Shown in pieces: positions 4,768-61,612 of a stretch of DNA of 64,000 nt; position 1 is the stretch's first letter, and every line of letters starts with the position of its first letter. A program made the translations under genes and the position numbers. The notes beneath the pieces are model-generated. The model was not told the DNA's origin. It searched no databases and worked only from the letters and a program-made list of their open reading frames with translations. Origin of the DNA: Burkholderiales bacterium (GTDB taxonomy: Bacteria > Pseudomonadota > Gammaproteobacteria > Burkholderiales > SG8-39); contig JACZJV010000050.1 in NCBI GenBank assembly GCA_014860355.1, positions 14,733 to 78,732 of the forward strand. The letters are read 5' to 3'.

Positions 4768-4868
4768 AGCCGCCATCGCTTTAGCTTATACTCGACATAA
4801 ATCCATGATGCATTGCAACAATTTTGCCGGGGTCCGGCCCTGGTTCAACCAAAAAGAACGGAACTGAC

Positions 4869-30048: not shown

Positions 30049-30050
30049 GT

Positions 30051-31399: not shown

Positions 31400-31856
31400 G
31401 TCTTTCCCTGAAAGTTGTTCCACCCATTATCCAGTGTTGCGTGACTCCATGACAAATTTTCGAATGACCGTCCCCCGCCCGGCGGTTCGCGCCTGTGCGC
31501 CGTGGGCATGGTCACGCGCGGTTCCACTGTATTTTACCCAAACTATCCTGCCGGGTTCCCTGGAGGCGGCCATTTCCCGCAAGGCGCCTGCTTGCAGCCG
31601 CGCGCTGCCGGCCACACGAATGGCGTGTCGCCGCGTGCATCGCTGCATCTGATTGCGATGGCAACCGTGTCATTCGTCGGCATTTGTCGTTGCTCGGCCA
31701 GAAGCGGTCCGCGAAGATTATCTTCTATATAATGGCCCGGTCATCGCGCCGGGAAGCCCGGATAAACGAGCCGACAGTCCATTGATTTTCCTGTTACCGC
31801 GCAACAGCGAATATTCGACTTTGTTTTGCCGACTGATCCACCAAGAGGAGAACATC

Positions 31857-48253: not shown

Positions 48254-48538
48254 TCATGAGACGATCTGGACGCCGCGCCAGAATGCCACGTAACCAGCGA
48301 TATTCGCCGCCGCCGGCTTGGGCACCGGGTAATACCAGGCGCCGTCCTTGTTGACCTGGCCGCCGACCACGATGTCGTAATAACTCGCCTCGCCCTTCCA
48401 GCCGCAGGTCGTATGATGATCGCTCGCGCGGAAATAGCGCATGTCCAGCGATTCCGGCGGGAAGTAGATATTGCCCTCCACGGTTTCAAAGCGCGCGGTT
48501 TGCGCAATCACGACATCGTTCCATACTGCTTTCGGCAT
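48254..48538 (-). CDS. DUF427 domain protein
   Basis: 94 aa. ...EGNIYFP...C.WKG.A.YY... core typical of DUF427. Confidence 0.8.
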   Translation of the reverse strand: MPKAVWNDVVIAQTARFETVEGNIYFPPESLDMRYFRASDHHTTCGWKGEASYYDIVVGGQVNKDGAWYYPVPKPAAANIAGYVAFWRGVQIVS

Positions 48539-48619
48539 GATCGTCTCCTCGTGTTAGGCCGAAGTTGCTTGAGTTCCAGATCGATCCGGTCCTCGGCAAA
48601 TGCTGCTTTGGTGATTCCC

Positions 48620-49435
48620 TCAACGCGCGTCGTTGAGCCTCCAGTCGTAATCGAGGAATTCGAGACCGTAGTCGCCGCGCCGGATCCGCGCCTGCGCCTG
48701 CGGCGTATCTGCCAGGCGCTCGGCGTATCTGGCGAATGTCGCCGTGAGCGAGGCGAAGCCGGCGTGGCCCTGCTCGAAGTCCTTGCCGTACCAGTCGAAC
48801 AGCTCGGATACGAGCAGGGTGTTGCGCTCGGCATCGTAGCGGTTGCGCGTACGGTCGGAGAGGAAGCGGCGCATGCCCTCTTCCAGTTGCGCATCCAGCC
48901 GCTCGGCGCTATAGGCCTCGTCGCGCAGCATCGGGCAGCCGATCGAGGCGCACACCAGCGCAGCGTGGATGCGCGGTTCGTCGAAGGCGCCGGGGGCGCG
49001 GATCATGCCCTGTTCGATGTCGTCGAGATGGCGTTCGCCGCCGAGCAGGACGAAGAACCTGCGTTTCCACGGCGACTGGAACACGCTGCCCAGATCATTG
49101 ATCGACGCGAGCTCCGGGTACCTGGAGAGGATCAGTTCGACGGTGTAGGCGTTATAGGCGTTGATCAGAAACGCGAGCCGCTGCTGCCTGGTCCAGCCGC
49201 GGTACTCCGCCATGCTTACGGCGGACAGGCCCTCCAGATAGGCCTTGAGCCGCTGGTGCTCGGCCTGTACGCCGGCATAGCGCAGCTGCGATGCATTGCC
49301 GCCCTGAATCAGCACCACATTGTCTTTCAGCAGCGCGGTCCACGCCGCGTGACTGTGATCGAAAGCGTGTGCCGTGGCGGCCGTGAGCATGAGGACGAGG
49401 GCGGCGAGCCAGCGCTTCGAGGCTGGCGCCTTCAT
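48620..49435 (-). CDS. secreted DUF547 domain protein
   Basis: ATG 49435 overlaps the upstream stop (ATGA). Signal peptide MKAPASKRWLAALVLMLTAATAHA. INAYNA and HAALVCASIGCP motifs of DUF547. Confidence 0.75.
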   Translation of the reverse strand: MKAPASKRWLAALVLMLTAATAHAFDHSHAAWTALLKDNVVLIQGGNASQLRYAGVQAEHQRLKAYLEGLSAVSMAEYRGWTRQQRLAFLINAYNAYTVELILSRYPELASINDLGSVFQSPWKRRFFVLLGGERHLDDIEQGMIRAPGAFDEPRIHAALVCASIGCPMLRDEAYSAERLDAQLEEGMRRFLSDRTRNRYDAERNTLLVSELFDWYGKDFEQGHAGFASLTATFARYAERLADTPQAQARIRRGDYGLEFLDYDWRLNDAR

Positions 49436-51576
49436 CCGCGCCGCCAGGCGTGGAAGCGCTCCACCCATTCGAGCAGCTTTTGCGGCGCGTGCGCCTTCTT
49501 CCACACGCCCGCCGCATACTTGTTCGCTTCCGCCATGGTCGGGTAGATATGGATGGTGCCGAGGATCTTGTTGAGCCCGATGCCGTGGCGCATCGCCAGC
49601 ACGTATTCGGCGATCAGCTCGCCGGCATGCTCGCCGACGATGGTGACGCCGAGTATGCGGTCCTTTCCGGGTACGGTGAGCACCTTGACGAAGCCGTGGG
49701 CCTCGCCATCGGCGATTGCGCGGTCCAGGTCGTCGATGCCGTAGATGGTCACTTCGTAGGGAATCGCGCGCTCCTTCGCCTCGGTCTCGTTCAGCCCCAC
49801 CCGCGCCGCTTCCGGGTCGACGAAAGTGGCCCAGGGTATGACTGAATAATCGGCGCGGAATTTCTTGAACGGATCGAACAGCGCATTGACCGCCGCGTAC
49901 CAGGCCTGATGCGCCGCCGTATGGGTGAACTGATACGGCCCGGCGACGTCGCCGGCGGCATAGATGTTGGGAAATCTGGTCTGCAGGAATTCGTTCGTCT
50001 CGACCGTGCGCTGCGCCGCGATGCCCAGCTCCTCCAGACCGTAGCCTTGCAGATTCGCGACCCGGCCGACGGCAACCAGCAGCGCGTCGAACGGGATGCG
50101 CACGTCCGCGCCCGCATGTTCGGCGACGAGGATCTTTTCGCCGCCTTCGACGACGAACTGCTTCGCCTTGTGATTGACCAGGACGGCTATGCCTTCGGCG
50201 CGAAAGTGCTGCGCCACCAGTTCGGACACCTCCGGATCCTCGCGGATGAGGATGCGCGGCGCCATTTCCACCTGCGTGACTTCGGCGCCGAGCCGGGCAA
50301 AGGTCTGGGTCAGCTCCGAGCCGATCGGGCCGCCGCCCAGCACCACCAGGCGCCGCGGCAACTGGCGCAGGTCCCACACGGTATCGGAGGTGAGATAGCC
50401 GACTTCCTCGATGCCCGGAATCGGCGGAACGAATGGGCGCGCGCCGGCGGCGATGACGATGGAACGCGTGCTCAGGCGCTCGCGCCCGCCGTCATTGCGC
50501 GTGATTTCCACCTCCCAGGGCGAGACGATTTTTGCCGTGCCTTCGATCACCTCCACGCCGAGTCCGGTATAGCGCTCGGCAGAGTCGTGGGGCGCTACGG
50601 TTTTGATGACGCGTTGCACGCGCTCCATCACCTCGGCAAAGTCAAACTCCGCCCGCGCGTCGCGGATGCCGAATTCAGGCGAACGGCGCATGTGGGCAAG
50701 CAGCCTGGCCGAGCGAATCAGGGCTTTTGAAGGCACGCAACCGGTATTCAGGCAGTCCCCGCCCAGTTTGTGCTTCTCCACCAGCGTGACCTTGGCCTTT
50801 ACCGCGGCAGCGATATACGAGGTGACCAGCCCTGCCGACCCGGCGCCGATCACGATCAGGTTGCGCTCGTAGCGCCGCGGTCTGTTCCAGCCGGCATAGA
50901 CCTTGTTCGTGCGCAGGCGCTCGGTGATTTTCTTGGCCAGCAGCGGAAAAATCCCCAGCAGCGCAAACGACGCCACAATCGCGGGCGAGAGGATGCCGGA
51001 CAAGGACTCGATTTTCGCCAGCTGCGTGCCGGCGTTCACATACACGATCGTGCCCAGCAGCATGCCGGCCTGGCTGACCCAGTAAAAGGTGCGCGTGCGG
51101 ATCGCCGTGAGCCCCATCACCAGGTTGATGACGAAGAAGGGGAACAGCGGCACCAGGCGCAGCGCGAGCAGATAGAAGCCGCCTTCGCGCTCGATGCCGG
51201 CATTGACGGCCTGCAAGCGCTCGCCGAATCGCTGTTGCACCCAGTCGCGCAGCAGGAAGCGCGAGGCGAGGAAGGCGAGCGTCGCGCCTGCCGTGGAAGC
51301 GAATGACACCAGGACCGTTCCCCAGAGCAGGCCGAAAACCGCACCGCCTGCAAGCGTCATTACCGCCGCGCCGGGCAGGGAAAGACCGGTGATCGCGACG
51401 TAGGCGAGGAAGTAGAACAGCGCCGCTTTTGCCGGCTGCGCCGCGCGCCAGGTTTCGATGGCAGCCTGCTGGCTCTTGAAAAAATCCAGACTCAGGTAGC
51501 GACCCAGATCGAAGAAGTAATAGCCGAGCGCGACGCCCAGCAGCACGGCAATCAGTACGAGGCGTTGACGGTTCAT
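49432..51576 (-). CDS. bifunctional TVP38/TMEM64 (DedA-related) membrane protein / class I pyridine nucleotide-disulfide oxidoreductase
   Basis: 714 aa. The N-terminal ~230 aa hold 5-6 TM segments of TVP38 type. The remainder has IGAGSAGL, the redox-active disulfide GGDCLNTGCVPSK, and the C-terminal HIYPTMAE His-Glu motif (mercuric/lipoamide reductase-like). Confidence 0.85.
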   Translation of the reverse strand: MNRQRLVLIAVLLGVALGYYFFDLGRYLSLDFFKSQQAAIETWRAAQPAKAALFYFLAYVAITGLSLPGAAVMTLAGGAVFGLLWGTVLVSFASTAGATLAFLASRFLLRDWVQQRFGERLQAVNAGIEREGGFYLLALRLVPLFPFFVINLVMGLTAIRTRTFYWVSQAGMLLGTIVYVNAGTQLAKIESLSGILSPAIVASFALLGIFPLLAKKITERLRTNKVYAGWNRPRRYERNLIVIGAGSAGLVTSYIAAAVKAKVTLVEKHKLGGDCLNTGCVPSKALIRSARLLAHMRRSPEFGIRDARAEFDFAEVMERVQRVIKTVAPHDSAERYTGLGVEVIEGTAKIVSPWEVEITRNDGGRERLSTRSIVIAAGARPFVPPIPGIEEVGYLTSDTVWDLRQLPRRLVVLGGGPIGSELTQTFARLGAEVTQVEMAPRILIREDPEVSELVAQHFRAEGIAVLVNHKAKQFVVEGGEKILVAEHAGADVRIPFDALLVAVGRVANLQGYGLEELGIAAQRTVETNEFLQTRFPNIYAAGDVAGPYQFTHTAAHQAWYAAVNALFDPFKKFRADYSVIPWATFVDPEAARVGLNETEAKERAIPYEVTIYGIDDLDRAIADGEAHGFVKVLTVPGKDRILGVTIVGEHAGELIAEYVLAMRHGIGLNKILGTIHIYPTMAEANKYAAGVWKKAHAPQKLLEWVERFHAWRRG

Positions 51577-51691
51577 CCGGATTCCAGGTCAGGGTTTTAT
51601 AGGGGGGTAGGTAGCTTGCATTGGTCGCGCGAAACCCCCGAATTCTTACGCGCTAGTCCGCCCCCGTTTCGAGGGCCCCCGAAAGAAATGC

Positions 51692-52660
51692 TCACTTTGC
51701 GCGCAAATCGCTGTATTGGGACATTTCGGCGATCAATCGGGCGATGGCCGCGCGCTCGGCCGCCGGGTCGACTTCGTGGCGCCGCGCTATTACCGCGGCT
51801 TGCAGTTCGGCTAGCCAGTCCGGGTCGCGCTGGGCGCGCGCGAGTTGCGCCGCCAGCGCGGCCTCGTCCGCGTATGGGTAGTAGCCCGGATAGTCTGCGC
51901 CTAGCAGGCCGATATTGCCGGGGATGGCCGAGGCGATGACGGGCACGCCCGCGGCTATCGCTTCGGATACGACGTGCGCCCCGCCTTCCATGCGGCTCGA
52001 GATGACCATCGCGTGACTGCGCGCCAGCCAGCGCATCGCGCCTGCATGATCGAGTTCACCCAGCCAGCGATAGCGTGGCTCGGCGCGCATCAGCGCGCGT
52101 GCCTGCTGCCCCATTTCAGCCGTCATCGCCTGGCCCAGCTGCACCACGCGGATCGCGCTCTGCGGCAGCTGCGCCAGCGCGAGGGCGGCGCGAAACGGGT
52201 CTTTCTCCTCGCGCAAATGGCCGATCACGGTGACCAGAAAAAAGCTGCGCGGCGGAGTTTGCCGCCGCAGGGCGCGCTGCGACTGGAAAATTACGCTGGT
52301 TTTCGCGCGCTGCGCCGCGCCCAGTTCGTCCAGGCCCAGAGGCTGCAGCACCACCATGCGGTCAGCGAGGCCTAGCGACGCGCGCGCGTCGGCGTCGCTG
52401 CGTATGTCGCGGTACAAATCGGTGCCGGTGAGCACCAGGACCAAAGGACGCTGCGGGTGCGTCGACTTCCACGCCTTCATCGCCGCGTGGCTGCGGCGCG
52501 CATGCAGGGCAATGAGCAGCTCGCAATCGCGCCCGTCCCAATCGAGCGCAAGCTGCGTCACGTGCCCGAGCGCGCGCAAATGCCGCGCCCAGCGCAGCGC
52601 GGTATTGCGGTTGCCCTGGCGCGAACCCGGCGCGGCGGGCGTTACAATGAGTATGCGCAT
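51692..52660 (-). CDS. senB: GT-B glycosyltransferase of the selenosugar synthase (SenB) type
   Basis: 322 aa. The N-terminus MRILIVTPAAPGSRQGNRNTALRWARHL matches my memory of the selenium-neighbourhood glycosyltransferase family later named SenB. A GT1 C-terminal E-x7-E-like region is present (SRMEGGAHVVSEAIAAGVPV). Divergent from an EgtB-like gene. Confidence 0.75.
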   Translation of the reverse strand: MRILIVTPAAPGSRQGNRNTALRWARHLRALGHVTQLALDWDGRDCELLIALHARRSHAAMKAWKSTHPQRPLVLVLTGTDLYRDIRSDADARASLGLADRMVVLQPLGLDELGAAQRAKTSVIFQSQRALRRQTPPRSFFLVTVIGHLREEKDPFRAALALAQLPQSAIRVVQLGQAMTAEMGQQARALMRAEPRYRWLGELDHAGAMRWLARSHAMVISSRMEGGAHVVSEAIAAGVPVIASAIPGNIGLLGADYPGYYPYADEAALAAQLARAQRDPDWLAELQAAVIARRHEVDPAAERAAIARLIAEMSQYSDLRAK

Positions 52661-52736
52661 GGAGTGCCGCGCAGGCAGGGCTTGCCGGGCGGGAAGAAGA
52701 GGATCGGCTTATGCATGGCAGGTGTGGCAACAGGGC

Positions 52737-53939
52737 ATGAGAGACAATATAGCAGAGCCGTCGCCGCGCGCCGGCTGGCCCGATTTTTCGCTCTACCGGC
52801 CGCATCCGCCGGCAGCCCGACTGCGCGCCTGGCTGGTCGAGGCGCACGACCTGAGCTCGTTGCTGACGCAGTTCCTCGGCGACGAAACCATTGTCGTTCC
52901 GCTGCTGCCGATCGTCAATCCGCCGCTGTGGGAACTCGGTCACATCGCCTGGTTCCAGGAGTTCTGGCTGCATCGCGGCGGGGATTTTTCCCGGCCCTCG
53001 ATGCTGCGCGACGCGGATCGCTGGTATGACTCGGCGCGCGTCGCGCACGACACGCGTTGGTCCCTGGACCTGCCCGACGCACAGGCGACGCGGGGCTATG
53101 TCGAAGGAGTGTATAAGCGTACGCTGGCTTTGTTCGAGCGCGAATCACCGGGCGACGCGCGCGCGTACTTTACCCAGCTGGCGATCTTTCACCAGGACAT
53201 GCACAACGAGGCCTTCTGCCACATGTGGCAGACGCTCAGTTACCGGATGCCGCTAGCCTGGGCGCAAGCGGATGCAGCGGACGCAGCCGATCTGGAGCTT
53301 CCCGCAGGCAGGTTTGCGCTCGGGGCTAGCCGCGGCTCGGGCTTCGTATTCGACAACGAAAAATGGGCGCACGAGGTGGACTTGCGCGACTATGCGATTG
53401 CGCGCCGTGCGGTGAACAACGCCGAGTACCGCGCATTCGTCGAAGCGGGCGGCTACGCCCGGCGCGAATTATGGAGCGAGGCCGGTTGGGCCATGCGCGA
53501 GCGTTTGGCACTGGCGCATCCGCGCTACTGGAGGCGCGCTGCGCAGGGCTGGTCGGTGCGCCGCTTCGATCGCTGGGTGCCGCTGGCGGAGCACGAACCG
53601 GTGATGCACGTGAGTTGGTATGAGGCCGAGGCCTATTGCGCCTGGGCCGGCCGGCGCCTGCCGAGCGAGGCGGAATGGGAACGCGCCGCGGCAACCTGCC
53701 CCGATCGCTTTGACAGCGGCCGGGTCTGGGAATGGACTTCCAGCCGTTTCGCTCCCTATCCGGGCTTCACTGCCGACCCCTACAAGGAATACTCGGAGCC
53801 CTGGTTTGCCGACGAGCATCGCGTGTTGCGCGGCGGCAGCTTCGCCACGCCGCCGCGGCTGCTGCGCAGGACCTGGCGCAATTTCTACGCGCCCGCGCGA
53901 GCGGACATGTTCTGCGGATTTCGCAGCTGCGCGCTCTGA
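52737..53939 (+). CDS. senA: EgtB-like DinB_2 + FGE-sulfatase-domain C-S/C-Se bond-forming enzyme (selenoneine synthase SenA type)
   Basis: In-frame ATG 52737; the ORF part upstream overlaps senB. The iron triad is WELGHIAWF plus FHQDMHNE (H, HxxxHxE). The FGE-like C-terminal domain has RLPSEAEWE and RGGSF. Confidence 0.75.
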   Translation: MRDNIAEPSPRAGWPDFSLYRPHPPAARLRAWLVEAHDLSSLLTQFLGDETIVVPLLPIVNPPLWELGHIAWFQEFWLHRGGDFSRPSMLRDADRWYDSARVAHDTRWSLDLPDAQATRGYVEGVYKRTLALFERESPGDARAYFTQLAIFHQDMHNEAFCHMWQTLSYRMPLAWAQADAADAADLELPAGRFALGASRGSGFVFDNEKWAHEVDLRDYAIARRAVNNAEYRAFVEAGGYARRELWSEAGWAMRERLALAHPRYWRRAAQGWSVRRFDRWVPLAEHEPVMHVSWYEAEAYCAWAGRRLPSEAEWERAAATCPDRFDSGRVWEWTSSRFAPYPGFTADPYKEYSEPWFADEHRVLRGGSFATPPRLLRRTWRNFYAPARADMFCGFRSCAL

Positions 53940-53942
53940 AAT

Positions 53943-54029
53943 CCGGGCAGTGTAGCCGGCGCGCGTGCGCCGCATGCAAGGTATACTGCTTTCCCGCGGT
54001 GCAATTCGACCGCGTAGCTACACGGTCCG
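53943..54029 (+). other. structured senA-phnD intergenic leader (possible three-way junction)
   Basis: Outer helix 53943-53956 / 54017-54029 (12 pairs, one mismatch, one G-U) encloses hairpins 53957-53972 (6 bp, GCGU loop) and 53995-54014 (6 bp). Confidence 0.25.
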
Positions 54030-54078
54030 CCGCGGCGGCCCTTGGTACACCATCCAACATTCTCCGGAGTACGTCTAC

Positions 54079-54936
54079 ATGAGCGCTATCTTCCGCATTT
54101 TGGCCCTTGTGCTGTTCGGCTTGTCCTTTGCGCATGGCACTGCAGCCCAGGGCGTGCTCAGGGTATCCGCCATACCCGACGAAGCGCCGACCGAGCTGCA
54201 GCGCAAGTTCAAGCCGCTGGGCGAATATCTCGCGCAGGAAACCGGCATGAAGGTCGAGTTCACCCCGGTGAGCGACTACGCCGCAGTGGTCGAATCGCTG
54301 GCCACGAAGAAACTCGACCTCGCCTGGCTGGGGGGATTCACCTTCGTACAGACCAAGCTGCGCACCAAGGGCAGCGCCATACCCATCGTGCAGCGCGCCG
54401 AGGACGAAGTATTCACCAGCCGCTTCATCGTGCCCTCCGGCAGCAAGGCCAAGACCCTGGCCGATCTCAAGGGCAAGACCTTTGCCTTCGGTTCGCCCTC
54501 ATCGACCTCCGGACACCTGATGCCGCGCTATTTCCTGCTGCAGGCGGGCATCGATCCGGACAAGGATTTCAAGAACGTTGCGTTCTCGGGCGCGCACGAT
54601 GCGACGGTGGCATTCGTGGCCGGCGGCAAGGCCGAAGCCGGCGTGCTCAACGCCTCGGTCTGGGACAAGCTGGTGCAGGCAAAGAATCCCAACGCGCTGA
54701 AGGTCAGGGTGCTCGCGACCACGCCGCCCTATTTCGACTACAACTGGACCGTGCGCGGCGACCTGGACCCGGCCCTGGTGAAAAAGCTCACCGCCGCCTT
54801 TCTCAAGCTCGACCCGGCCAATCCGGCGGATAAGGCGATACTGGACCTGCAGCGCGCATCCAAGTTCATTCCGACCAAGGCGTCGAACTACGACGGCATC
54901 GAGAATGCCGCCAAATCGGCCGGCCTGATCAAATGA
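54079..54936 (+). CDS. PhnD-family ABC transporter periplasmic substrate-binding protein
   Basis: Internal ATG; signal peptide MSAIFRILALVLFGLSFAHGTAAQ. PhnD-type fold markers (LRVSAIPDE, FGSPSSTSGHLMPR). Confidence 0.8.
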   Translation: MSAIFRILALVLFGLSFAHGTAAQGVLRVSAIPDEAPTELQRKFKPLGEYLAQETGMKVEFTPVSDYAAVVESLATKKLDLAWLGGFTFVQTKLRTKGSAIPIVQRAEDEVFTSRFIVPSGSKAKTLADLKGKTFAFGSPSSTSGHLMPRYFLLQAGIDPDKDFKNVAFSGAHDATVAFVAGGKAEAGVLNASVWDKLVQAKNPNALKVRVLATTPPYFDYNWTVRGDLDPALVKKLTAAFLKLDPANPADKAILDLQRASKFIPTKASNYDGIENAAKSAGLIK

Positions 54937-54977
54937 CCCGACGCAGGTCTGCGCGCTGAATCGATGGAGCGCCTTGC

Positions 54978-55847
54978 GTGAGCTTTGAGCTCGACCGCAT
55001 AGGCTTGATACATTCCAACGGCCAGGCGCAGGGTCAACGGGCTTTGCGTGCGGTGTCGATCAGCGCCGCGCGCGGCGAGCGCCTGGCGATCATCGGCCCT
55101 TCCGGTGCGGGCAAGACTACGCTGCTGCGCATACTCGCCACTTCGATCCGTCCTACCGAGGGACGCGTCAGCGTGCTCGGTACGAATCCCTGGCAGCTTA
55201 GCAGCAGAGAGCTCAGGCGCCTGCGCAGCGGCGTCGGATTCATCCACCAGGCGCCGCCGATACCGCCGCGCCAGCGCGTGATTACCGCAGTGATCGCCGG
55301 GCGCCTGGGCCAGTGGCCCTGGTGGAAATCGGCGCTGTCGCTGATCTACCCGGCCGACATCGCCGGTCCGCGCGAGCAACTGGCGCGCCTGGATCTCGCC
55401 GACCGCCTGTTCGATCGCTGCGACCGGCTCTCCGGCGGGCAGCTGCAGCGCGTCGGAGTGGCGCGCGTGTTGTACCAGCGCCCGGATTTGCTGCTGGCGG
55501 ACGAACCGGTTTCGGCCATGGATCCTGCGCTCGCCGATCTCACCGTGGGCCAGCTGCACGCCGAAGCGCAAAGCCGCGGGGTCACGCTGGTCGCCAGTCT
55601 GCACGCGGTGGACATAGCGCTGCGCTGGTTCCCGCGCGTGATCGGACTCAAAGCGGGTGAGCTCGTATTCGACCTGCCGCCTGCGAAGGTGAGCGAGAGC
55701 GTGCTGCGCGACCTCTATGCCTCCGAAACCGGCGTGTTGCCCTCGCAGGACAATCAGCCGTTCCATGCGTCGTTCGAGGGATATGCCACGGACGACACCC
55801 CGGGCGGCAGCGGGCAGGTCCCGCTCGCGCCGCCGCGCGTGATTTGA
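54978..55847 (+). CDS. phnC: phosphonate-type ABC transporter ATP-binding protein
   Basis: GTG start. Walker A GPSGAGKTT, signature LSGGQLQRV, Walker B LLLADEP. Confidence 0.9.
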   Translation: MSFELDRIGLIHSNGQAQGQRALRAVSISAARGERLAIIGPSGAGKTTLLRILATSIRPTEGRVSVLGTNPWQLSSRELRRLRSGVGFIHQAPPIPPRQRVITAVIAGRLGQWPWWKSALSLIYPADIAGPREQLARLDLADRLFDRCDRLSGGQLQRVGVARVLYQRPDLLLADEPVSAMDPALADLTVGQLHAEAQSRGVTLVASLHAVDIALRWFPRVIGLKAGELVFDLPPAKVSESVLRDLYASETGVLPSQDNQPFHASFEGYATDDTPGGSGQVPLAPPRVI

Positions 55848-55859
55848 TTCCCTTGCGCC

Positions 55860-56696
55860 ATGTCATCTGGTTTGCAACCCCCGCAGCTGCGTGATCCGGA
55901 TGCACCCAGGCGGGCTGGCTGGGTGCTGCTTGCGCTGCTGGTGTTGTGGCCGCTCATGCAGATCGCCGAATTCCGTCCGTCCGACTTGTTCGACGCGCGC
56001 AACCTCGAGGTGATGGGCGGCTTCCTCGGGCAGTTCTTTCCGCCGAATATGAGCGGCGATTTTCTCGCCTACGCGCTCAAGGCGACCATAGAGACGCTGG
56101 CGATGGCGACCGCCGGCATCGCGCTCGCGATGTTGCTCGCGCTGCCGCTGGGCCTGGTGCTCACGCACAGCCTCTCGGTTTCGCGCATCGGCCCCGGGTC
56201 GGGTCGCGGCGCGGGCGAGGCGGTGCGTGCGGCCGCGCGCGCGACGCTGCTGATACTGCGCGGCATACCCGAACTGGTCTGGGCCCTGCTGCTGGTGCGC
56301 GCTTTCGGGCTGGGGCCGGCCGCTGGTGTGCTGGCCATCGCGCTCACCTACGGCGGTATGCTGGGGAAGGTCTATTCCGAGATACTGGAATCCGGCGATA
56401 CGCGCCCCGCGCGCGTGCTGCTCGAATCCGGCAGCGGCCGCCTGATGGCGTTCTTTTACGGACTGTTGCCGGGGGCCGGACAGGAGCTGGCTTCCTACAC
56501 CATCTATCGCTGGGAGTGCGCGGTGCGTGCTTCGGTGATCATGGGCTTTGTCGGCGCCGGCGGCCTCGGGCAGTTGATGGACCAGTCGATGAAAATGCTC
56601 AACGGCGGCGAGGTCTCGACCATCCTGATCATATTCCTGCTGCTGGTGCTGCTCGCCGACGCGCTCAGCGTTTTTCTGAGGAAGCTGCTCGCATGA
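55860..56696 (+). CDS. phnE: PhnE-type ABC transporter permease
   Basis: 278 aa, 6 TM segments, PhnE-like IPELVWALLLV segment. Confidence 0.85.
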   Translation: MSSGLQPPQLRDPDAPRRAGWVLLALLVLWPLMQIAEFRPSDLFDARNLEVMGGFLGQFFPPNMSGDFLAYALKATIETLAMATAGIALAMLLALPLGLVLTHSLSVSRIGPGSGRGAGEAVRAAARATLLILRGIPELVWALLLVRAFGLGPAAGVLAIALTYGGMLGKVYSEILESGDTRPARVLLESGSGRLMAFFYGLLPGAGQELASYTIYRWECAVRASVIMGFVGAGGLGQLMDQSMKMLNGGEVSTILIIFLLLVLLADALSVFLRKLLA

Positions 56697-56724
56697 GCAC
56701 GGCAGCTCGCCTCGAGCTGAGCCC

Positions 56725-57537
56725 GTGAGCACCGCGACTTTTGCCGAGCGGCGCGCGGCCATGGGCTTTTGCCTGCAGTGCTGGCTGACGCTGTTGCTGC
56801 TGGCCTTGCTCGTCTGGGCCAGCTTCGCCTATCTGGCGCTGGATTTGTCGCGCTTGTTCAGCCTGGAATCGGGCCGCGGCATGCTGCAGTTCATCCTGCG
56901 CTTTTTTCCGCCCGATACCAGCGCGCAGTTCCTGCGCAAGATCGCCGGGGCCACGCTCGAAACCCTGGCCATATCCGCGATCGGCACGCTGCTCGCCGCG
57001 GGCGCCGGACTGCTGCTGGCGCTGCCGGCGGCGGGTCGTCTGGGTCCGGTGTTCAAAGCGCTGACCCGCTTTCTCCTCAACGCCCTGCGCTCGGTGCCCG
57101 AACTCGTGTGGGCGGCATTGATGGTGCTGGCTGCAGGGCTGGGGCCTTTCGCCGGCACGCTCGCCCTGGCATTGCACACCTCGGGGGTGCTGGGGCGACT
57201 CTACGCGGAGAGCCTGGAAAATGCGCCGCCCGAGCCGGCACAGTCTCTGGTGGAAAGCGGTGCGCCGCCGGCGCTGGCCTTCGGCTACGCCACGCTGCCC
57301 TTGATCGCGCCGCAGCTGCTCTCCTACAGCCTGTACCGCTGGGAGATGAACATCCGCATGGCCACGGTGCTGGGCTTCGTCGGCGCCGGCGGCCTGGGGC
57401 AGATGCTCTACTACGAGCTGTCGCTGCTGCACGAAGCGCAGGCCTCGAGCGTCATCTTCGCCATGCTCGCATTGGTGGTGTTCGTCGACGCGGCGAGCGC
57501 CTGGGTGCGCCGCCGCCAGATGCGCGCGGGCGGATGA
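56725..57537 (+). CDS. phnE: PhnE-type ABC transporter permease (second)
   Basis: GTG 56725 (ATG 56761 is the alternative). Paralogous to the preceding permease (VPELVWAALMVL). Confidence 0.8.
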   Translation: MSTATFAERRAAMGFCLQCWLTLLLLALLVWASFAYLALDLSRLFSLESGRGMLQFILRFFPPDTSAQFLRKIAGATLETLAISAIGTLLAAGAGLLLALPAAGRLGPVFKALTRFLLNALRSVPELVWAALMVLAAGLGPFAGTLALALHTSGVLGRLYAESLENAPPEPAQSLVESGAPPALAFGYATLPLIAPQLLSYSLYRWEMNIRMATVLGFVGAGGLGQMLYYELSLLHEAQASSVIFAMLALVVFVDAASAWVRRRQMRAGG

Positions 57538-57555
57538 GGCCGCGGCGGTCCAGCG

Positions 57556-58776
57556 CTAATCCGCGAGGCGGGTCGGGATGCTGATTTCGGCGTGCAGCGT
57601 TCGATGTACCGGACACTTATTGGAGATCTCCAGCAGCTTGGCGCGCTGCTCCTCGCTCAAGGGGCCTTCCAGCCGTATCAGCCGCTCGATGCGGTCGACC
57701 TTGCCCTCCCTGGTTTCGCATTCCGCGCAATCTGCCGCGTGAATTTTGTCGTGTCTTAGCTCGACAGTGGCGCGCTCCAGCGGATAGCCCTTGAGATCGG
57801 CATACATGCGCATGGTCATCGAGGTGCACGCGCCGAGACCGGCGAGGAGCAGGTCGTAGGGCGAAAGTCCGCTGTCCAGGCCGCCGGCCGCGACCGGCTC
57901 GTCCGCGCGGATCACATGCTGCCCGACGAGCACGCGCTGACTGAATTTGCCCTCGCGGGTTTCCTGCACCACCACCTTGCCGGGCACCGCAGACGCAGCG
58001 GTGGCCGCCGTGGCGCCGAGGTAGCGCATCGCCCAGGATGCCAGGATGCTGCCGGTGTACAGCGCGTCCTCGCGCCGCGACAGCATGTGGTCGGCCGGAT
58101 CGAGGGAAACAAAACTCTTCGGGTGTTTCGCCGTGGTAAAGATCCGCGTTGCATTGTCGATGCCGACTACGCTGTCGCGCGGCGTATGCATGACCAGCAG
58201 CGCCTTGCCCATGTGCGCGAGTTTGTCGCCGAGCTTGCTGCCCGAGATGTCGTCCAGGAACTGCCTGCGTATGCGAAAGGGACGCTCGCCGATGTCGACT
58301 TCGGCCTCGCCTTCGCGCTCGATCGCGGACTTGTCCTTGATCAGCTGCAGCACATGCGCCGGATCGATAGGCGAGCCTATGGTCGCCACCGCGACCGCTT
58401 CGGGCACGCGCGCCGCTGCGGCGAGGACCGCGGTGCCGCCGAGGCTGTGGCCGACCAGGAGTGCGGGCGCGCTATAGTGCTGGCGCAGGTAGTCTGCTGC
58501 AGACACCAGGTCCTCCAGGTTCGAAGAAAAATTCGTGCTGGCAAAATCCCCGCCGCTGCCGCCCAGACCGGTGAAGTCGAAGCGCAGCACCGCGATGCCG
58601 CGCTCGGCCAGCGCCGCACTGACGTAAGTCGCGGCCTTGCTTTCCTTGGAGCAGGTAAAGCAATGCGCGAACAGGGCGTAGGCGATCGGCGCCGCTGACG
58701 GCGGCAGGTCGAGGCGCGCGGCGAGCAGGGCGCCTATGGCGCCGGGAAAGGAAAGCGTAAGCGACTGTATGGTCAT
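57556..58776 (-). CDS. bifunctional alpha/beta hydrolase / OsmC family protein
   Basis: 406 aa. The N-terminal half has the nucleophile elbow GHSLGG. The C-terminal ~140 aa has OsmC-type Cys pairs (GLGACTSMT ... NKCPVH). Confidence 0.85.
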   Translation of the reverse strand: MTIQSLTLSFPGAIGALLAARLDLPPSAAPIAYALFAHCFTCSKESKAATYVSAALAERGIAVLRFDFTGLGGSGGDFASTNFSSNLEDLVSAADYLRQHYSAPALLVGHSLGGTAVLAAAARVPEAVAVATIGSPIDPAHVLQLIKDKSAIEREGEAEVDIGERPFRIRRQFLDDISGSKLGDKLAHMGKALLVMHTPRDSVVGIDNATRIFTTAKHPKSFVSLDPADHMLSRREDALYTGSILASWAMRYLGATAATAASAVPGKVVVQETREGKFSQRVLVGQHVIRADEPVAAGGLDSGLSPYDLLLAGLGACTSMTMRMYADLKGYPLERATVELRHDKIHAADCAECETREGKVDRIERLIRLEGPLSEEQRAKLLEISNKCPVHRTLHAEISIPTRLAD

Positions 58777-58819
58777 GCAGCCTCCTGGTTTTTGGTGCGT
58801 GCGCTAGAGCTATCGCCAG

Positions 58820-59794
58820 CTAGATCGCCGCGTGGCACAGCGCGAACCAGTCGTTCGCGTCGGTCCACGCCTGGATGCGGTCAAAGCCGGCGCGCGCCAG
58901 CAGCGTCTTGAAATCAGTCAGCGCGTACTTGTAGCTGTTCTCCGTATGGATGCGCTGGCCCTGGCGAAATGCGCGTGTGCCGCCGGGCCAGCGCACGCTG
59001 AGGTCGTGCCTGGCCTCCAGGTGCATTTCGATGCGCGAGGCTGCGGTGTTGAACTGCGCCCGGTGGCGCCAGTCGCGCACGGCGAAATCGCTGCCGATCA
59101 GCGCATTCACGTTGTTGAGCAGGTTCAGGTTGAATGCCGCGGTGACCCCGAGCGCGTCGTCGTAGGCAGTCTGCAACAGGGTTTCGGACTTGAGCAGATC
59201 GACGCCGATCAGCAGGCCGCCGCCATGGGGGCCTGCGCACTGCGCCCGTATGCCGGCAAGGAAAGCGAGCGCCTGCTCCGGCGTGAAGTTGCCGATCGAT
59301 GAGCCGGGGTAGAAGAACAGGCGCTTGTCGCGGCTGACCGCATCGGGCAGGCGCAGGCCCGAGGAGAAATCGGCGCCGATGCCGAGCATTTCCATCTGCG
59401 GAAACTCACGCTGCAGCTGCGACATCGACTGCCGCAGATAATCCACGGAGATGTCCACTGCGACATACTGGCTCGGCCGCAGCGCAGCAAACAGGCTGCG
59501 CGCCTTTTCGCAATTGCCCGCGCCGAGGTCGATCAGCGCCGGCGCGGGGCCGGCGGCGCGCGCCACGCTGTCGCGGCAGGCTAGGAGCAGCGCTTTTTCC
59601 GTGCGCGTCGGATAGTATTCGGGCAGTTCGGTAATGGCATCGAACAGGCGCGAGCCCAGCGCGCCATAGAGGTGCTTGAACGACACCCATGGCGCGTCTG
59701 CCATCAGTCCCGCCACGATCGCGGCGGCCTCCGCGCCCGGCGCAAGCGCATCGGCGGGAAACGAAAAGAATGTCGGGCCGGATTGCAGCGTCAT
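58820..59794 (-). CDS. egtD: L-histidine N(alpha)-methyltransferase (hercynine synthase)
   Basis: 324 aa. FDAITELPEYYPTRTE, DLGAGN, YDDALGVTAAFNLNLL, RIEMHLEA and ENSYKY blocks match mycobacterial EgtD as I recall it. Confidence 0.9.
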   Translation of the reverse strand: MTLQSGPTFFSFPADALAPGAEAAAIVAGLMADAPWVSFKHLYGALGSRLFDAITELPEYYPTRTEKALLLACRDSVARAAGPAPALIDLGAGNCEKARSLFAALRPSQYVAVDISVDYLRQSMSQLQREFPQMEMLGIGADFSSGLRLPDAVSRDKRLFFYPGSSIGNFTPEQALAFLAGIRAQCAGPHGGGLLIGVDLLKSETLLQTAYDDALGVTAAFNLNLLNNVNALIGSDFAVRDWRHRAQFNTAASRIEMHLEARHDLSVRWPGGTRAFRQGQRIHTENSYKYALTDFKTLLARAGFDRIQAWTDANDWFALCHAAI

Positions 59795-59862
59795 GGTTTT
59801 GACCTCGTTTCGATACGCATCGTTTGCCTCAGCAGCGGCAATAGTATCAACTGCGGCGGACG

Positions 59863-60825
59863 TTAGCGGTCCCGCTTCAAAGAACTGCCGTCTCCGGCAT
59901 GGAACACCGCGGTGTGCGGGTTGAACGCGTACCAGGCGAACCAGTAGCCGACCACCGCCGGAAGCTGCCGCCCATCGGCGGCGTGGGCCGTGGCGCGCGC
60001 AGCCTGGCGGTCGAAGCGGATGGTCAGCGCAGTGTCACCTATCCGGTCGGACACCACGCCGGTCGTTTTCCCCAATTCGACGAAGGGATACGCCTTGGTC
60101 TGTTCGCCTATCCTGATACCGAGCACCCGTTCCTTGGGATGAAAGCCCGCAGAGCGGAACGCCACCGGGAACATGATGTCCTCGCTGCTCTCATATCCGG
60201 CGTAGGGGTCGCGCGCGTAAGGTCGCGTCTGCCCGGTATTGGTAGTCAGAACCCCGGTCGCCGGGTGTAAGCTGCGCCAGTCGGCCCAGCTGGTATGGGT
60301 CAGCGGCAGCAGCTTCAGGCGCCGACCTTTCTTCGGGCCGCTGACCGCCTGCGCCAGCAACTGCGACCACAGCGACTGTGTCTGCCGGTCGTACAGCAGC
60401 ACGTCGCTGTTGTAGAGCAGTCCGGAGACGCCGAAGCTGAGCACCTGACCATCGACGCTGGCATCGAAGGCCGCGCCGGTGCCGCACAGCGGACAGAAAG
60501 TGATCACCACCGCCTCCGCGCCGAAACGGTCGTTGACCACTTCGTGCCAGTTGAGTATGCGCACCGGATAGGCGCGCGCGATGCCCTTGCGCACCATGCC
60601 GAGTACGGCGTCATCGTCGCGCAGGAAAGTCGCAAGCCCTGCCTCGGTGAATTCGGGCTGGTCGATCGCGGGTATGCCGTCCCTGGGCGGTCCGCCTGCG
60701 TGGATCTCGTCGCTGGCGATCAATGATCCCTGCAGGTCGAAGCCGTTCATCTGCTGCGCGTAGGAGAGGACCGGCGCGAGGCCGGCGAGCAGGGCGAAGT
60801 ATGATACCAGGCGTCGAAATCTCAT
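59863..60825 (-). CDS. secreted DUF3179 domain protein
   Basis: Internal ATG (MRFRRLVSYFALLAGLAPVLSYAQQ signal peptide). PRDGIPAIDQP, FCPLCGTG and LLYNSDVLLYDRQT motifs of DUF3179. Confidence 0.8.
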   Translation of the reverse strand: MRFRRLVSYFALLAGLAPVLSYAQQMNGFDLQGSLIASDEIHAGGPPRDGIPAIDQPEFTEAGLATFLRDDDAVLGMVRKGIARAYPVRILNWHEVVNDRFGAEAVVITFCPLCGTGAAFDASVDGQVLSFGVSGLLYNSDVLLYDRQTQSLWSQLLAQAVSGPKKGRRLKLLPLTHTSWADWRSLHPATGVLTTNTGQTRPYARDPYAGYESSEDIMFPVAFRSAGFHPKERVLGIRIGEQTKAYPFVELGKTTGVVSDRIGDTALTIRFDRQAARATAHAADGRQLPAVVGYWFAWYAFNPHTAVFHAGDGSSLKRDR

Positions 60826-60937
60826 TCGTCCTCCAGACACATGTCGGGTGCGGATCTGTTTGTCGCAACCAGGCTAGCGTTTCTTACGCCGACTGAGGGT
60901 GCAGGTAATCCGGACCCAGCCGGTTGATGCAATGGCC

Positions 60938-61612
60938 CTAGGTAGGCGGCCGGCGCAACCGGTCGCGCACGAGTTTCACCGCGAACGGGATCAGGGTAAT
61001 GGCACCCAGTGCCAGCACCGATATCATGATCTGATCGGACTCACCGGTGGCCATCTCGCCGCCGAAATGGGCCAGCAGAAAGCTCGCCGGTACGATGCCG
61101 ATGAGCGTCGCGAGCGCGAAGCGCCAGAACGAGAGCACCGTCAGGCCCGCGGCATAGCTCACAATATCGAAGGATATGAACGGCAGGAGACGGCTGACCA
61201 GCACGATACCCATGAGCGTGTTTTGCGATCCGAGCAGGCCCAAGGACAATCGCTCGCCGAACCAGCGCCGCATGGTGTCCCCGCCGAGCCAGCGTGCCAG
61301 GCCGAAGGCGGTGATCGCGCCGATCTCCGCGCCCACGAGCACATAAAGCGTGCCCCAGACATGGCCATACGCGGCGCCGGCAGCCATGGCGATGGGTGCA
61401 CTCGGAATCGGGCTCACCATGATTGCCAGCACCATCAGGCCGATCACCAGCAGCGGGCCCCATGCCCCCAGGCGCGCAATGTGATCGTGCAGTTCGGCCC
61501 GGTTCAGGATGGTCGCCAAGGCGCCGGTTTCGTGCAACAGCCAGTAGGTCGCTGCCAGCAGCGCCAGCAGCGCGAGTACGGCGAGCAGTTTGAACCGCAG
61601 CGACTGCGTCAC
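60938..61612 (-). CDS. TVP38/TMEM64 family (DedA-related) membrane protein
   Basis: GTG 61612 overlaps the SelD-fusion stop (GTGA). 224 aa, 5-6 TM segments, MVSPIPSAPIAMAAGAAYG core. The rest of the 758-aa track ORF is antisense to the SelD fusion gene. Confidence 0.75.
   Translation of the reverse strand: MTQSLRFKLLAVLALLALLAATYWLLHETGALATILNRAELHDHIARLGAWGPLLVIGLMVLAIMVSPIPSAPIAMAAGAAYGHVWGTLYVLVGAEIGAITAFGLARWLGGDTMRRWFGERLSLGLLGSQNTLMGIVLVSRLLPFISFDIVSYAAGLTVLSFWRFALATLIGIVPASFLLAHFGGEMATGESDQIMISVLALGAITLIPFAVKLVRDRLRRPPT

Follow-up and report, generated by a model that had tools for sequence, protein, structure and literature searches.

The biosynthesis of the selenium antioxidant selenoneine is encoded by the sen cluster, senA-senB-senC, described in Variovorax paradoxus DSM 30034 and Amycolatopsis palatopharyngis (Kayrouz et al. 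2022, bioRxiv 10.1101/2022.04.13.486033). In the same work, 827 clusters were defined as tigr04348 genes with homologues of egtB and selD no more than 5 kb away on either side (10.1101/2022.04.13.486033). The V. paradoxus SenB has Lys158 as the catalytic residue and binds phosphate/selenophosphate with Arg155, Asn20, His58 and Thr83, and SenA is distinguished from EgtB by the replacement of the thiol-binding Arg87/Asp416 pair with His and Phe/Tyr (PMC11237966; Kayrouz et al., preprint 10.1101/2022.04.13.486033). A search of the literature for sen-associated oxidoreductases or regulators gave nothing relevant.

The locus analysed here is part of a 64,000-nucleotide stretch from a Burkholderiales bacterium (hereafter the window; coordinates refer to it, and related loci are given by their L numbers). 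Judged by protein family models, aligned residues and gene context, the divergent gene pair at its centre very probably represents senB and senA, which encode the two enzymes that form C-Se bonds, in the middle of a self-contained selenium island.

Gene layout and start codons

The ORF list and the translations confirmed the divergent arrangement given in a preliminary description made from the letters only. The minus-strand ORF at 51692-52660 encodes 322 aa from an ATG, the first start past an upstream stop at 52708. The plus-strand frame is open from 52230, and its conserved protein runs from ATG 52737 to the stop at 53939, with a length of 400 aa. The two start codons are thus separated by an intergenic spacer of 76 bp (52661-52736). 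Both genes have a GC3 of 0.80 at a window GC of 65%, and family E-values of 1e-121 and 4e-151 exclude chance ORFs.

The preliminary description had doubted the start of the plus-strand gene, with the in-frame GTG 52722 as the alternative. Sequence comparison favours ATG 52737: the closest orthologous loci carry ATG or GTG at the equivalent position followed by (x)-N-I-A-E, the homologues are mostly 399-400 aa long, and the gene callers picked the same start on related contigs. Moreover, L081 and L082 have an in-frame TGA five codons ahead of the corresponding ATG, and the stretch between the two is free of start codons. In the window, no in-frame start occurs between ATG 52737 and the conserved AGWPDF segment. 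The doubt is therefore settled for ATG 52737, and GTG 52722 is disfavoured on the basis of orthologue starts and homologue lengths.

Identity of SenB and SenA

The minus-strand product (51692-52660) is a putative selenosugar synthase, a Se-glycosyltransferase of the GT-B fold. It matches the SenB equivalog model TIGR04348 with 403 bits (cut-off 300) over profile positions 1-309 of 310, and the PDB SenB chains 8k5u, 8jjq and 8fbx match it at E-values of 3e-67 to 1e-64. Identity to the V. paradoxus SenB is 45%, with K153, R150, N17, H53, T78 and Q126 aligned to K158, R155, N20, H58, T83 and Q131, respectively, and the EGGAHV loop identical in both proteins. Two UDP-contacting residues of the V. 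paradoxus enzyme differ in the window, R22 being replaced by N19 and T214 by A208; they are the sole exceptions among the catalytic and substrate-binding positions that have been described from the V. paradoxus SenA and SenB crystal structures. In the 8k5u SenB, position 22 is likewise not Arg; it is occupied by Gln.

The plus-strand product (52737-53939) is a predicted selenoneine synthase, a non-haem iron protein with DinB and FGE-like domains. The EgtB-like motifs noticed earlier, LWELGHIAWFQEFW and IFHQDMHNEAF, are present, as is an FGE-sulfatase domain (PF03781, E 2e-42); the protein also has a DinB_2 domain. The SenA equivalog model NF041186 is matched over its full length with 503.7 bits (cut-off 420), and the OvoA N-terminal model reaches 112 bits, far below its cut-off of 400. 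The PDB SenA structures 8ryz/8k5i match at E 6e-98, and the identity to the V. paradoxus SenA is 49%. Residues H69, H152, H156, Y349 and N382 align with V. paradoxus H71, H167, H171, Y363 and N395; by homology, the three histidines would form the iron triad, Y349 would be catalytic and N382 would bind hercynine. The preliminary description had proposed an alignment with inspection of the substrate pocket, and this bore out its reading: the SeGlcNAc pocket is kept (N61, E66 and R107 for Asn63, Glu68 and Arg120), and H104 and Y384 occupy the positions of EgtB Arg87 and Asp416. The senB-like/senA-like assignment is thereby supported by curated equivalog models, homologues of solved structure and residue mapping; at the level of function, it rests on 45-49% identity to characterised enzymes together with conserved residues. 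The highest identity to the window SenA in a collection of 5.8 billion protein sequences was 87%. In databases, homologues of SenA still carry the label "EgtB" or "iron(II)-dependent oxidoreductase".

The selenium island and its occurrence in relatives

The genes around the pair form an island of roughly 15.6 kb (about 48254-63894) with predicted functions in uptake, selenophosphate synthesis and hercynine supply, in addition to both C-Se enzymes. Downstream of senA, on the plus strand, lies a transporter block of four genes, likewise found 3' of senA in L008, L083 and L084. It starts with a putative selenate ABC transporter periplasmic substrate-binding protein (54079-54936, 285 aa from ATG 54079; TIGR04553, 372.8 bits, cut-off 250), whose signal-peptide start agrees with that of the L085 orthologue. 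It is followed by an ABC transporter ATPase (54978-55847), with PhnC as its best NCBIfam match at 206 bits, below cut-off, and by two PhnE-type permeases (55860-56696 and 56725-57537), which match PhnE with 194 bits (below cut-off) and 237 bits (above the cut-off of 216.7), respectively.

On the minus strand, 4.9 kb downstream of senA, an egtD gene for L-histidine N-alpha-methyltransferase (58820-59794; TIGR03438, 362.2 bits, cut-off 290.9) would supply hercynine, and it is syntenic in L081-L084. The senC equivalent (61609-63894, minus strand) is predicted to encode a 761-aa fusion of a pyridine-nucleotide-disulfide oxidoreductase with SelD. Its N-terminal part matches TIGR03169 with 528.5 bits (cut-off 310), and residues 416-723 match the selD model TIGR00476 with 298.5 bits (cut-off 125), including the CGGCGAK Cys/Lys loop. 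Its orthologues are 88% identical in L001 and 760-761 aa long in L081-L083. The GTG start of a gene for a 224-aa DedA/VTT-family membrane protein (60938-61612, minus strand) overlaps the senC stop (GTGA); orthologues with PF09335 and 86-89% identity occupy the same place in L081-L083. Downstream of senB, a minus-strand gene (49432-51576) encodes a 714-aa fusion of a VTT/DedA domain with a class-I pyridine-nucleotide-disulfide oxidoreductase (PF09335, PF07992 and PF02852; CLNTGC redox motif) and also adjoins senB in L018 and L081-L084. Its stop is overlapped by the ATG of a gene for a 271-aa DUF547 protein (48620-49435, minus strand; PF04784, E 1e-24).

Two further minus-strand genes are considered accessory and window-specific. 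An alpha/beta-hydrolase-OsmC fusion of 406 aa (57556-58776; PF02566 and PF12146), with a sub-threshold match to the OsmC-related (seleno)protein model NF041052 (51 bits, cut-off 95), adjoins sen genes in none of the other loci compared. A 325-aa DUF3179 protein encoded between the DedA gene and egtD (59863-60840; PF11376, E 3e-91) was not found in related loci. A wider association of DUF3179, hydrolase-OsmC, DUF547, DUF427 and DedA genes with sen loci was considered and dropped, such genes being seen only in the closest relatives or in the window.

Among 80 related loci, 50 have senB and senA in divergent orientation, more than show any other layout. The close relatives L081-L085 and L018 have the gene order of the window, and in L001 the divergent neighbour is the VTT-oxidoreductase gene, not senB. 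The preliminary description had taken the pairing with a glycosyltransferase, rather than with egtD, egtC and egtA, as the distinguishing context. The pairing stands, and so does the lack of egtC and egtA: the EgtA, EgtC and EgtE models matched none of the ORFs scanned in the window. The supposed lack of egtD does not, given the TIGR03438 match described above. No second EgtB was found in the window by tblastn.

The presence of egtD is one of the points in favour of reading the EgtB-like protein as an ordinary ergothioneine sulfoxide synthase, served by the nearby EgtD and with the glycosyltransferase as an unrelated neighbour. The protein also has the EgtB fold and domains, and EgtB is the name given in some database entries to homologues with 74% identity (P0032). 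Even so, this explanation is extremely improbable: the EgtB model TIGR03440 yields 293.6 bits, short of its cut-off of 360, whereas the SenA cut-off is exceeded; His104/Tyr384 stand in place of Arg87/Asp416, a substitution common to all SenA proteins; the product of the adjoining gene scores above the SenB equivalog cut-off, and in 69 of 80 related loci the glycosyltransferase gene lies next to that of the EgtB-like protein; and the partners egtA, egtC and egtE are not found in the window. A different selenometabolite, whether an ovoselenol-type product of OvsA-like action on histidine or one made from another sugar or acceptor, is slightly easier to entertain but still very unlikely. The OvsA structures, whose enzymes use selenosugars as well, are the second-best PDB match (231 bits), and in vitro SenB takes several UDP-sugars. 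The SenA match is, however, about 100 bits higher, the hercynine-contacting N382 and the catalytic Tyr are kept, the SenA equivalog cut-off is passed, and egtD, whose product would make hercynine, is syntenic in all close relatives.

Proposed pathway

The pathway was reconstructed by homology to the V. paradoxus system, the chemistry of which comes from in vitro reconstitution. A selenium oxyanion would be imported by the TIGR04553-type ABC transporter and, after reduction to selenide, converted to selenophosphate by the SelD domain of SenC. SenB would then move selenium from selenophosphate to a UDP-sugar, preferably UDP-GlcNAc, giving a 1-selenosugar, and EgtD would provide hercynine by trimethylation of histidine. 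The three-His non-haem iron enzyme SenA is predicted to couple hercynine and the selenosugar with O2 to hercynyl-SeGlcNAc selenoxide, which would eliminate spontaneously and then be reduced to selenoneine, so that neither EgtC nor EgtE would be needed. In vitro, the final reduction was done by DTT; on a speculative reading taken up again below and judged unlikely as a whole, the clade-specific redox and membrane partners (the VTT-oxidoreductase, DedA and the oxidoreductase-SelD fusion) might supply selenide and carry out this last reduction.

Control region of the divergent pair

According to the preliminary description, both promoters must share the 76-bp spacer. That limit is probably too tight: the promoter-like elements with the highest conservation sit slightly within the 5' ends of both coding regions, in senA codons 4-6 and senB codons 5-7, and the control region thus probably extends beyond 76 bp. 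A two-hexamer sigma-70 scan gave no site inside the spacer, and a site within senA (52918-52890, minus strand) was discarded as not above shuffle expectation. An Rfam scan of 51000-54500 at E<=1 returned no riboswitch or leader family, just a chance sRNA match inside senA, and folding of both putative 5' leaders gave z-scores of -1.16 and +0.41, with no significant structure on either strand.

The candidate promoter of the leftward senB operon, picked out by conservation, is the extended -10-like element TGCTATATT (52746-52754, minus strand), which reads AATATAGCA on the plus strand and there makes up senA codons 4-6. These codons (AAT, ATA and GCA) are minority ones, with 30%, 13% and 9%, respectively. 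The motif A[CA]TATANCA[AG]A, defined after inspection of the data and on phylogenetically related sequences, has 15 occurrences in 13.3 kb of senB-senA control regions against 3 in the remaining 1.25 Mb of the loci, an enrichment of about 470-fold. It is also kept in L001, with the VTT-oxidoreductase gene as divergent neighbour in place of senB. Of the 24 TATAnT instances read on the senB strand, 19 have TGn directly before them, with a variable n; at the sequence level this is the information pattern of an extended -10, and in TGCTATATT (52754-52746) TGn stands directly 5' of a TAnnnT hexamer. The senB transcript would be expected to start near 52739.

The corresponding candidate on the senA strand is GTTACAAT (52641-52648, plus strand), a TACAAT -10-like element within senB codons 5-7. 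The codons ATT GTA ACG are identical in all nine sequences of the window's clade (36/36 pairs), and the segment at the 5' end ranks 1 of 301 for synonymous conservation. Among 121 invariant-residue columns, just 12 have an invariant codon, these three consecutive ones included, and two of the three, ATT and GTA, are rarely used (10% and 7%). More distant SenB genes have ATC GTC at the equivalent positions, TACAAT being invariant only within one clade. Neither TGCTATATT nor GTTACAAT has a -35.

A third block, TTATGCATGG (52709-52718, plus strand), lies in the spacer, and its ATG 52711 opens a 9-codon uORF with a TGA that overlaps the senA ATG (ATGA). The form (T/C)ATGCAT(G/A)G is kept in the window, L085, L081, L083, L018 and L002, at 29 nt (30 in L018) from AATATA, and 7-11 nt upstream there is an SD-like tract rich in purines. 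In five of the six closest sequences, the uORF and the senA start overlap. A conserved leader peptide was rejected: the peptide varies, in L018 it shares the reading frame of senA, and L003 and L005, more distant members of the clade, are without the ATG. ATGCAWGG as a repeated operator was likewise discarded, with the second copy at 53974, upstream of the transporter gene, missing from L083 and three unrelated copies in the window.

It is rather unlikely, though a serious contender, that AATATAGCA and GTTACAAT are no promoters at all but operator sites or a result of selection for AT-rich unstructured mRNA, with the promoters lying within the spacer. The lack of a -35 for both elements agrees with this, as does the fixed 29-nt spacing of the ATGCAT block, which suggests protein binding, and the closest relatives also show conservation of the spacer. 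AT-rich codons near starts can reflect selection against mRNA structure, and in GC-rich genomes AT-rich early codons are a general feature. AT-richness alone, however, would permit alternation of ATT with ATA or GTA with GTT, yet the codons are invariant; distant loci carry the motif in non-coding DNA upstream of senA, hence with no codon effect there; and the profile of TG, a variable base, TATA, a variable base and T fits an extended -10, not a palindromic operator.

With the elements read as promoters, the leftward operon (senB, VTT-oxidoreductase and DUF547) would be driven by the extended -10 inside senA codons 4-6, and transcription of senA may rely on the invariant TACAAT within codons 5-7 of senB. 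Should both assignments hold, the antisense 5' leaders would overlap by about 85 nt, with polymerases competing for the same DNA. The full proposal, that each gene of the pair carries the promoter of the other in its own first seven codons and that the island recruits clade-specific redox and membrane partners, is speculative and, taken as a whole, unlikely. If true, it would mean facing mRNA starts about 85 nt apart, antisense leaders and mutually exclusive binding of polymerase, and the overlapping promoters would then set a fixed SenA:SenB ratio or act as a toggle. The two candidate elements appear to be new here, and the one overlapping the senA start may offer a small lead on the regulation of the pathway, on which we found nothing published.

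Comparison with known systems

The candidate senB element resembles extended -10 (TGnTATAAT) sigma-70 promoters in its form T[TC]TGnTATA[GT]T, with n free and no recognisable -35. As opposed to known extended -10 and overlapping divergent promoters, the candidate element is embedded, in the window's clade, in the first codons of the opposing gene.

The predicted SenA shares with EgtB of Mycolicibacterium thermoresistibile (PDB 4x8b/4x8d) the DinB and FGE-like fold, the three-His iron site, the catalytic Tyr and hercynine as the acceptor, but has His/Tyr in place of Arg87/Asp416 and would use a selenosugar instead of gamma-Glu-Cys as the donor. With OvsA, the ovoselenol selenoxide synthase (PDB 8ux5, 8u41; PMC11030361), it has in common the non-haem iron homology and a SenB-type selenosugar; the match to OvsA is weaker (231 vs 332 bits for SenA), and the window has egtD and passes the SenA model.

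The closest counterpart is the sen cluster of Kayrouz et al., with the same SenA, SenB and SelD-type SenC families and the same diagnostic residues, and a selD homologue (61609-63894) is co-localised with senA and senB here as well. The window enzymes are only 45-49% identical to those of V. paradoxus. Moreover, it was the overlap of selD with tigr04348 that led to the characterised cluster, whereas the window senC is fused to a TIGR03169 oxidoreductase domain and lies beyond the transporter operon, 8.9 kb from senB (52660 to 61609). This places it outside +/-5 kb, a search criterion and not a biochemical requirement, and a count of sen clusters by that criterion would have missed the window locus. 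The conserved VTT-oxidoreductase fusion and DedA are extras of the window's clade compared with the characterised cluster.

Overall, a call made on gene context from the raw sequence proved correct, and the selenoneine loci gain another well-supported member, from an uncultured Burkholderiales-like lineage; its compact 15.6-kb island could be moved whole for selenoneine production. Compared with what is known, the locus is a well-preserved example of the pathway described in 2022, rather than something new.

Identity of SenB and SenA

Two divergent open reading frames were confirmed at the locus, senB at 51692-52660 on the minus strand (322 aa) and senA at 52737-53939 on the plus strand (400 aa from ATG 52737 to the stop at 53939), leaving the spacer of 76 bp (52661-52736) that the preliminary description had reported between the glycosyltransferase and EgtB-like genes. 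Both genes have a GC3 of 0.80 in a window of ~65% GC. The senB ATG at 52660 is the earliest start available after the upstream stop at 52708. The senA frame is open from 52230 and protein-like only from ATG 52737 on. As to the doubt whether senA might begin at GTG 52722, comparison of loci, homologue length and codon variation favor ATG 52737 as the probable start. The nearest orthologous loci have ATG or GTG followed by (x)-N-I-A-E at the same position, and in two related loci, L081 and L082, an in-frame TGA lies 5 codons before the equivalent ATG with no start in between. Moreover, the homologues are mostly 399-400 aa long, and gene callers picked the same start on related contigs, where the spacers are 67-79 bp. 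Finally, there is no in-frame start between 52737 and AGWPDFSLYRPHP, a segment considered coding because its variation among relatives falls mainly at third codon positions.

The glycosyltransferase scored 403 bits over its full length against the NCBI SenB equivalog TIGR04348 (cut-off 300), and the EgtB-like protein 503.7 bits against the SenA equivalog NF041186 (cut-off 420). The latter protein remained below the cut-offs of the EgtB (293.6 bits, cut-off 360) and OvoA (112 bits, cut-off 400) models. DinB_2 and FGE-sulfatase domains were found in it, and the GHIAWF and HQDMHNE motifs and the FGE-like domain noticed earlier are all present. The top solved structures were those of the Variovorax paradoxus (V. 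paradoxus) enzymes, 8ryz and 8k5i for SenA (E 6e-98) and 8k5u, 8jjq and 8fbx for SenB (E 3e-67 to 1e-64), with OvsA and EgtB structures being clearly weaker matches than those of SenA; SenA and SenB are 49% and 45% identical, respectively, to their V. paradoxus counterparts. Residues that the structural study PMC11237966 and the Kayrouz et al. preprint single out were mapped onto both proteins. SenA has the iron triad H69/H152/H156, the catalytic Y349, the hercynine-binding N382 and the SeGlcNAc pocket N61/E66/R107, while H104 and Y384 stand in for the thiol-binding Arg87 and Asp416 of EgtB, the replacement reported for all SenA proteins. In SenB, the catalytic K153 and R150, N17, H53, T78 and Q126 are kept, as is, without any change, the EGGAHV loop; the differences from V. 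paradoxus are confined to two residues that contact UDP (R22 to N19, T214 to A208). The comparison with EgtB, OvoA and SenA and the inspection of the pocket, both advised beforehand, thus came out on the side of SenA; with model scores, structures and residues in agreement, the original interpretation of the pair as the sen pathway enzymes SenB and SenA is supported.

The selenium island

The pair lies in an island of three parts, from ~48254 to 63894, outside which the window encodes ordinary chromosomal metabolism. Leftward, downstream of senB, is a minus-strand gene fusing a VTT/DedA domain to a class-I pyridine-nucleotide-disulfide oxidoreductase (49432-51576, 714 aa), the oxidoreductase part being a glutathione-reductase/MerA-like flavoprotein with a CLNTGC motif. 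A link between DedA and selenite uptake is known from Cupriavidus, and the fusion may be a selenium reductase or importer. The DUF547 gene (48620-49435, minus strand), whose ATG overlaps the stop of the fusion gene (ATGA), is translationally coupled to it, and a DUF427 gene follows (48254-48538, minus strand).

Rightward of senA, beyond a 139-bp spacer (53940-54078), a putative selenate ABC transporter is encoded on the plus strand by a binding protein (TIGR04553, 373 bits, cut-off 250), then an ATPase and two permeases. The listed reading frame of the binding protein begins at GTG 53965; the real start is ATG 54079, opening the signal peptide MSAIFRILALVLFGLSFAHG. The spacer contains AGGTATACT (AGGTATAGT in the related locus L083), with TATACT at 53982-53987 (plus strand), which may give the transporter operon a promoter of its own.

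The third part, a converging group on the right, holds egtD (58820-59794, minus strand; TIGR03438, 362 bits); the argument that the EgtB-like gene is paired with a glycosyltransferase rather than with egtD therefore does not fit the locus. There was no second EgtB in the window and no match to the EgtA, EgtC or EgtE models among the ORFs scanned. The minus-strand senC (61609-63894) has a TIGR03169 ('N-terminal to SelD') oxidoreductase domain as its N-terminal part (528 bits) fused to SelD (298 bits, CGGCGAK loop); this domain might be the source of selenide for SelD. The GTG of a DedA/VTT membrane protein gene (60938-61612, minus strand) overlaps the SelD stop (GTGA), and both genes are kept in L081-L083. 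A DUF3179 gene (59863-60840, minus strand) and an alpha/beta-hydrolase-OsmC fusion (57556-58776, minus strand; a weak 51 bits against the 'OsmC-related (seleno)protein' model, cut-off 95) are inserted in the egtD-senC operon of the window and of none of the relatives examined.

Far from the island are a multi-rhodanese/MoeB-like protein (473-2299, plus strand), a LysR regulator (4809-5783, plus strand) with a sub-threshold best match to the 'selenium metabolism-associated LysR' model, and a gene pair for a molybdenum hydroxylase of the xanthine-dehydrogenase family (27751-31426, minus strand); no link of these to the sen island was established.

The pathway proposed here is drawn from the in vitro reconstitution of the sen system. 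The SelD domain would convert selenide to selenophosphate, from which SenB, with a UDP-sugar, would form a 1-selenosugar; EgtD would supply hercynine, and SenA would combine hercynine, selenosugar and O2 into a selenoxide. Spontaneous elimination and subsequent reduction of the latter would yield selenoneine, so that EgtC and EgtE would not be needed. What the analysis of the window locus shows is family membership, residues and synteny; by homology, we infer these substrates and this product, as well as the role of the transporter; the oxidoreductase domains may act in selenide formation or in the last reduction.

Relatives and synteny

SenA is at most 87% identical to any protein in the large collection. 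Metagenomes and MAGs of Burkholderiales or Betaproteobacteria account for its nearest relatives, which their sources call anything from 'selenoneine synthase SenA' to 'EgtB' or 'iron(II)-dependent oxidoreductase'. Homologues 57-74% identical (P0032, P0098, P0110 and many JGI entries) bear such public names as 'ergothioneine biosynthesis protein EgtB', 'gamma-glutamyl hercynylcysteine S-oxide synthase' and 'iron(II)-dependent oxidoreductase', indicating that SenA proteins are often mis-annotated or under-annotated.

In 50 of the 80 genome loci compared, senB and senA are divergent neighbors; in 19 they are co-directional, and in 11 senB is missing from the fetched DNA. The order VTT-oxidoreductase, senB, senA, (transporter), egtD, DedA, oxidoreductase-SelD is common to L018 and L081-L085, the VTT-oxidoreductase fusion being syntenic with senB in L018 and L081-L084. 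DUF3179, hydrolase-OsmC, DUF547 and DUF427 are not general sen companions in the loci compared. In Myxococcales and Anaeromyxobacter loci (L054, L068, L069), senA/senB are flanked by oxidoreductases that belong to the family of the one in the VTT fusion but stand alone. The closest GTDB locus, L001 (SenA identity 78%), is without senB, either by natural loss or through a MAG assembly artefact; there, senA and the VTT-oxidoreductase gene are direct divergent neighbors separated by ~250 bp (3986-4232 of L001), with the AATATAGCAGA element retained.

The control region

A two-hexamer promoter scan gave no site in the 76-bp spacer, and neither an Rfam family nor a significant RNA fold was found in the control region. 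In 51400-54100, a sigma-70-like site of two hexamers occurs just once, as TTGACG-17-GACAAT (52918-52890, minus strand); it lies inside senA, points toward senB and is not above shuffle expectation. The comparison of loci revealed three conserved nucleotide elements.

Element (a), AATATAGCA (52746-52754), covers senA codons 4-6, all minority codons (usage 30%, 13% and 9%). In more distant Burkholderiales loci, the motif, there ACTATA(G/A/C/T)CA(A/G)A, precedes senA by 10-25 nt and is non-coding. Matches to A[CA]TATANCA[AG]A number 15 in 13.3 kb of sen control regions, all of them on the senA strand, vs. 3 in 1.25 Mb of remaining sequence, counts to be read in light of motifs (a)-(c) having been defined after data inspection and on related sequences. 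On the senB strand, it becomes T(T/C)TGnTATA(G/T)T, with TGn preceding TATAnT in 19 of 24 instances and n being any of the four bases, a pattern of conservation that is typical of extended -10 promoters. Given this profile, the enrichment and the retention of the motif in L001, where the VTT-oxidoreductase gene replaces senB as the divergent neighbor, we propose element (a) as a hypothetical promoter of the leftward operon, with transcription starting near 52739 and a leader of ~78 nt.

Element (b), GTTACAAT (52641-52648, senB codons 5-7), shows no variation across the nine sequences of the window's clade and is also present in L081-L085. ATT makes up only 10% of Ile and GTA only 7% of Val codons; more distant SenB genes have ATC GTC there. 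Of 121 invariant-residue columns, only 12 have an invariant codon; element (b) accounts for three consecutive ones, whose nine fellow columns use preferred, GC-rich codons. On the senA strand it contains TACAAT, the sole -10-like hexamer upstream of senA; in more distant loci, its place is taken by TA(G/A/C)ACT within the spacer. Like element (a), it is a hypothesized rather than a found promoter. If both act as such, the control region would measure ~115 bp (52641-52754) and the two leaders would be antisense to each other; the 76-bp spacer stands, but the earlier assumption that it is all the promoters share would not.

Element (c), (T/C)ATGCAT(G/A)G, is TTATGCATGG in the window (52709-52718, plus strand), 29 nt from AATATAGCA, a distance to AATATA that is fixed in the six closest sequences, where a purine-rich tract precedes the element. 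In the window, this tract is SD-like and 7 nt away, and the ATG of element (c) opens a 9-codon uORF (MHGRCGNRA) whose TGA overlaps the senA ATG (ATGA). Similar short uORFs over the senA start also occur in L085, L081, L083 and L002; peptide and frame are not consistently conserved among related loci.

Comparison with known sen systems

The sen pathway was described by Kayrouz et al. (2022), and curated HMMs and crystal structures exist for it. All sen-defining sequence features testable here are present; the one departure is the distance between tigr04348 and selD, 8.9 kb here vs. the operational ±5 kb of Kayrouz et al. (2022). The main value of the locus lies in the regulatory lead and in a compact, complete island. 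In comparison with the characterized cluster, senC of the window carries a fused TIGR03169 oxidoreductase domain and lies beyond the transporter operon, the VTT-oxidoreductase fusion and a DedA gene are kept in the window's clade, and a promoter-like element lies over the senA start. Overall, these are differences of detail.
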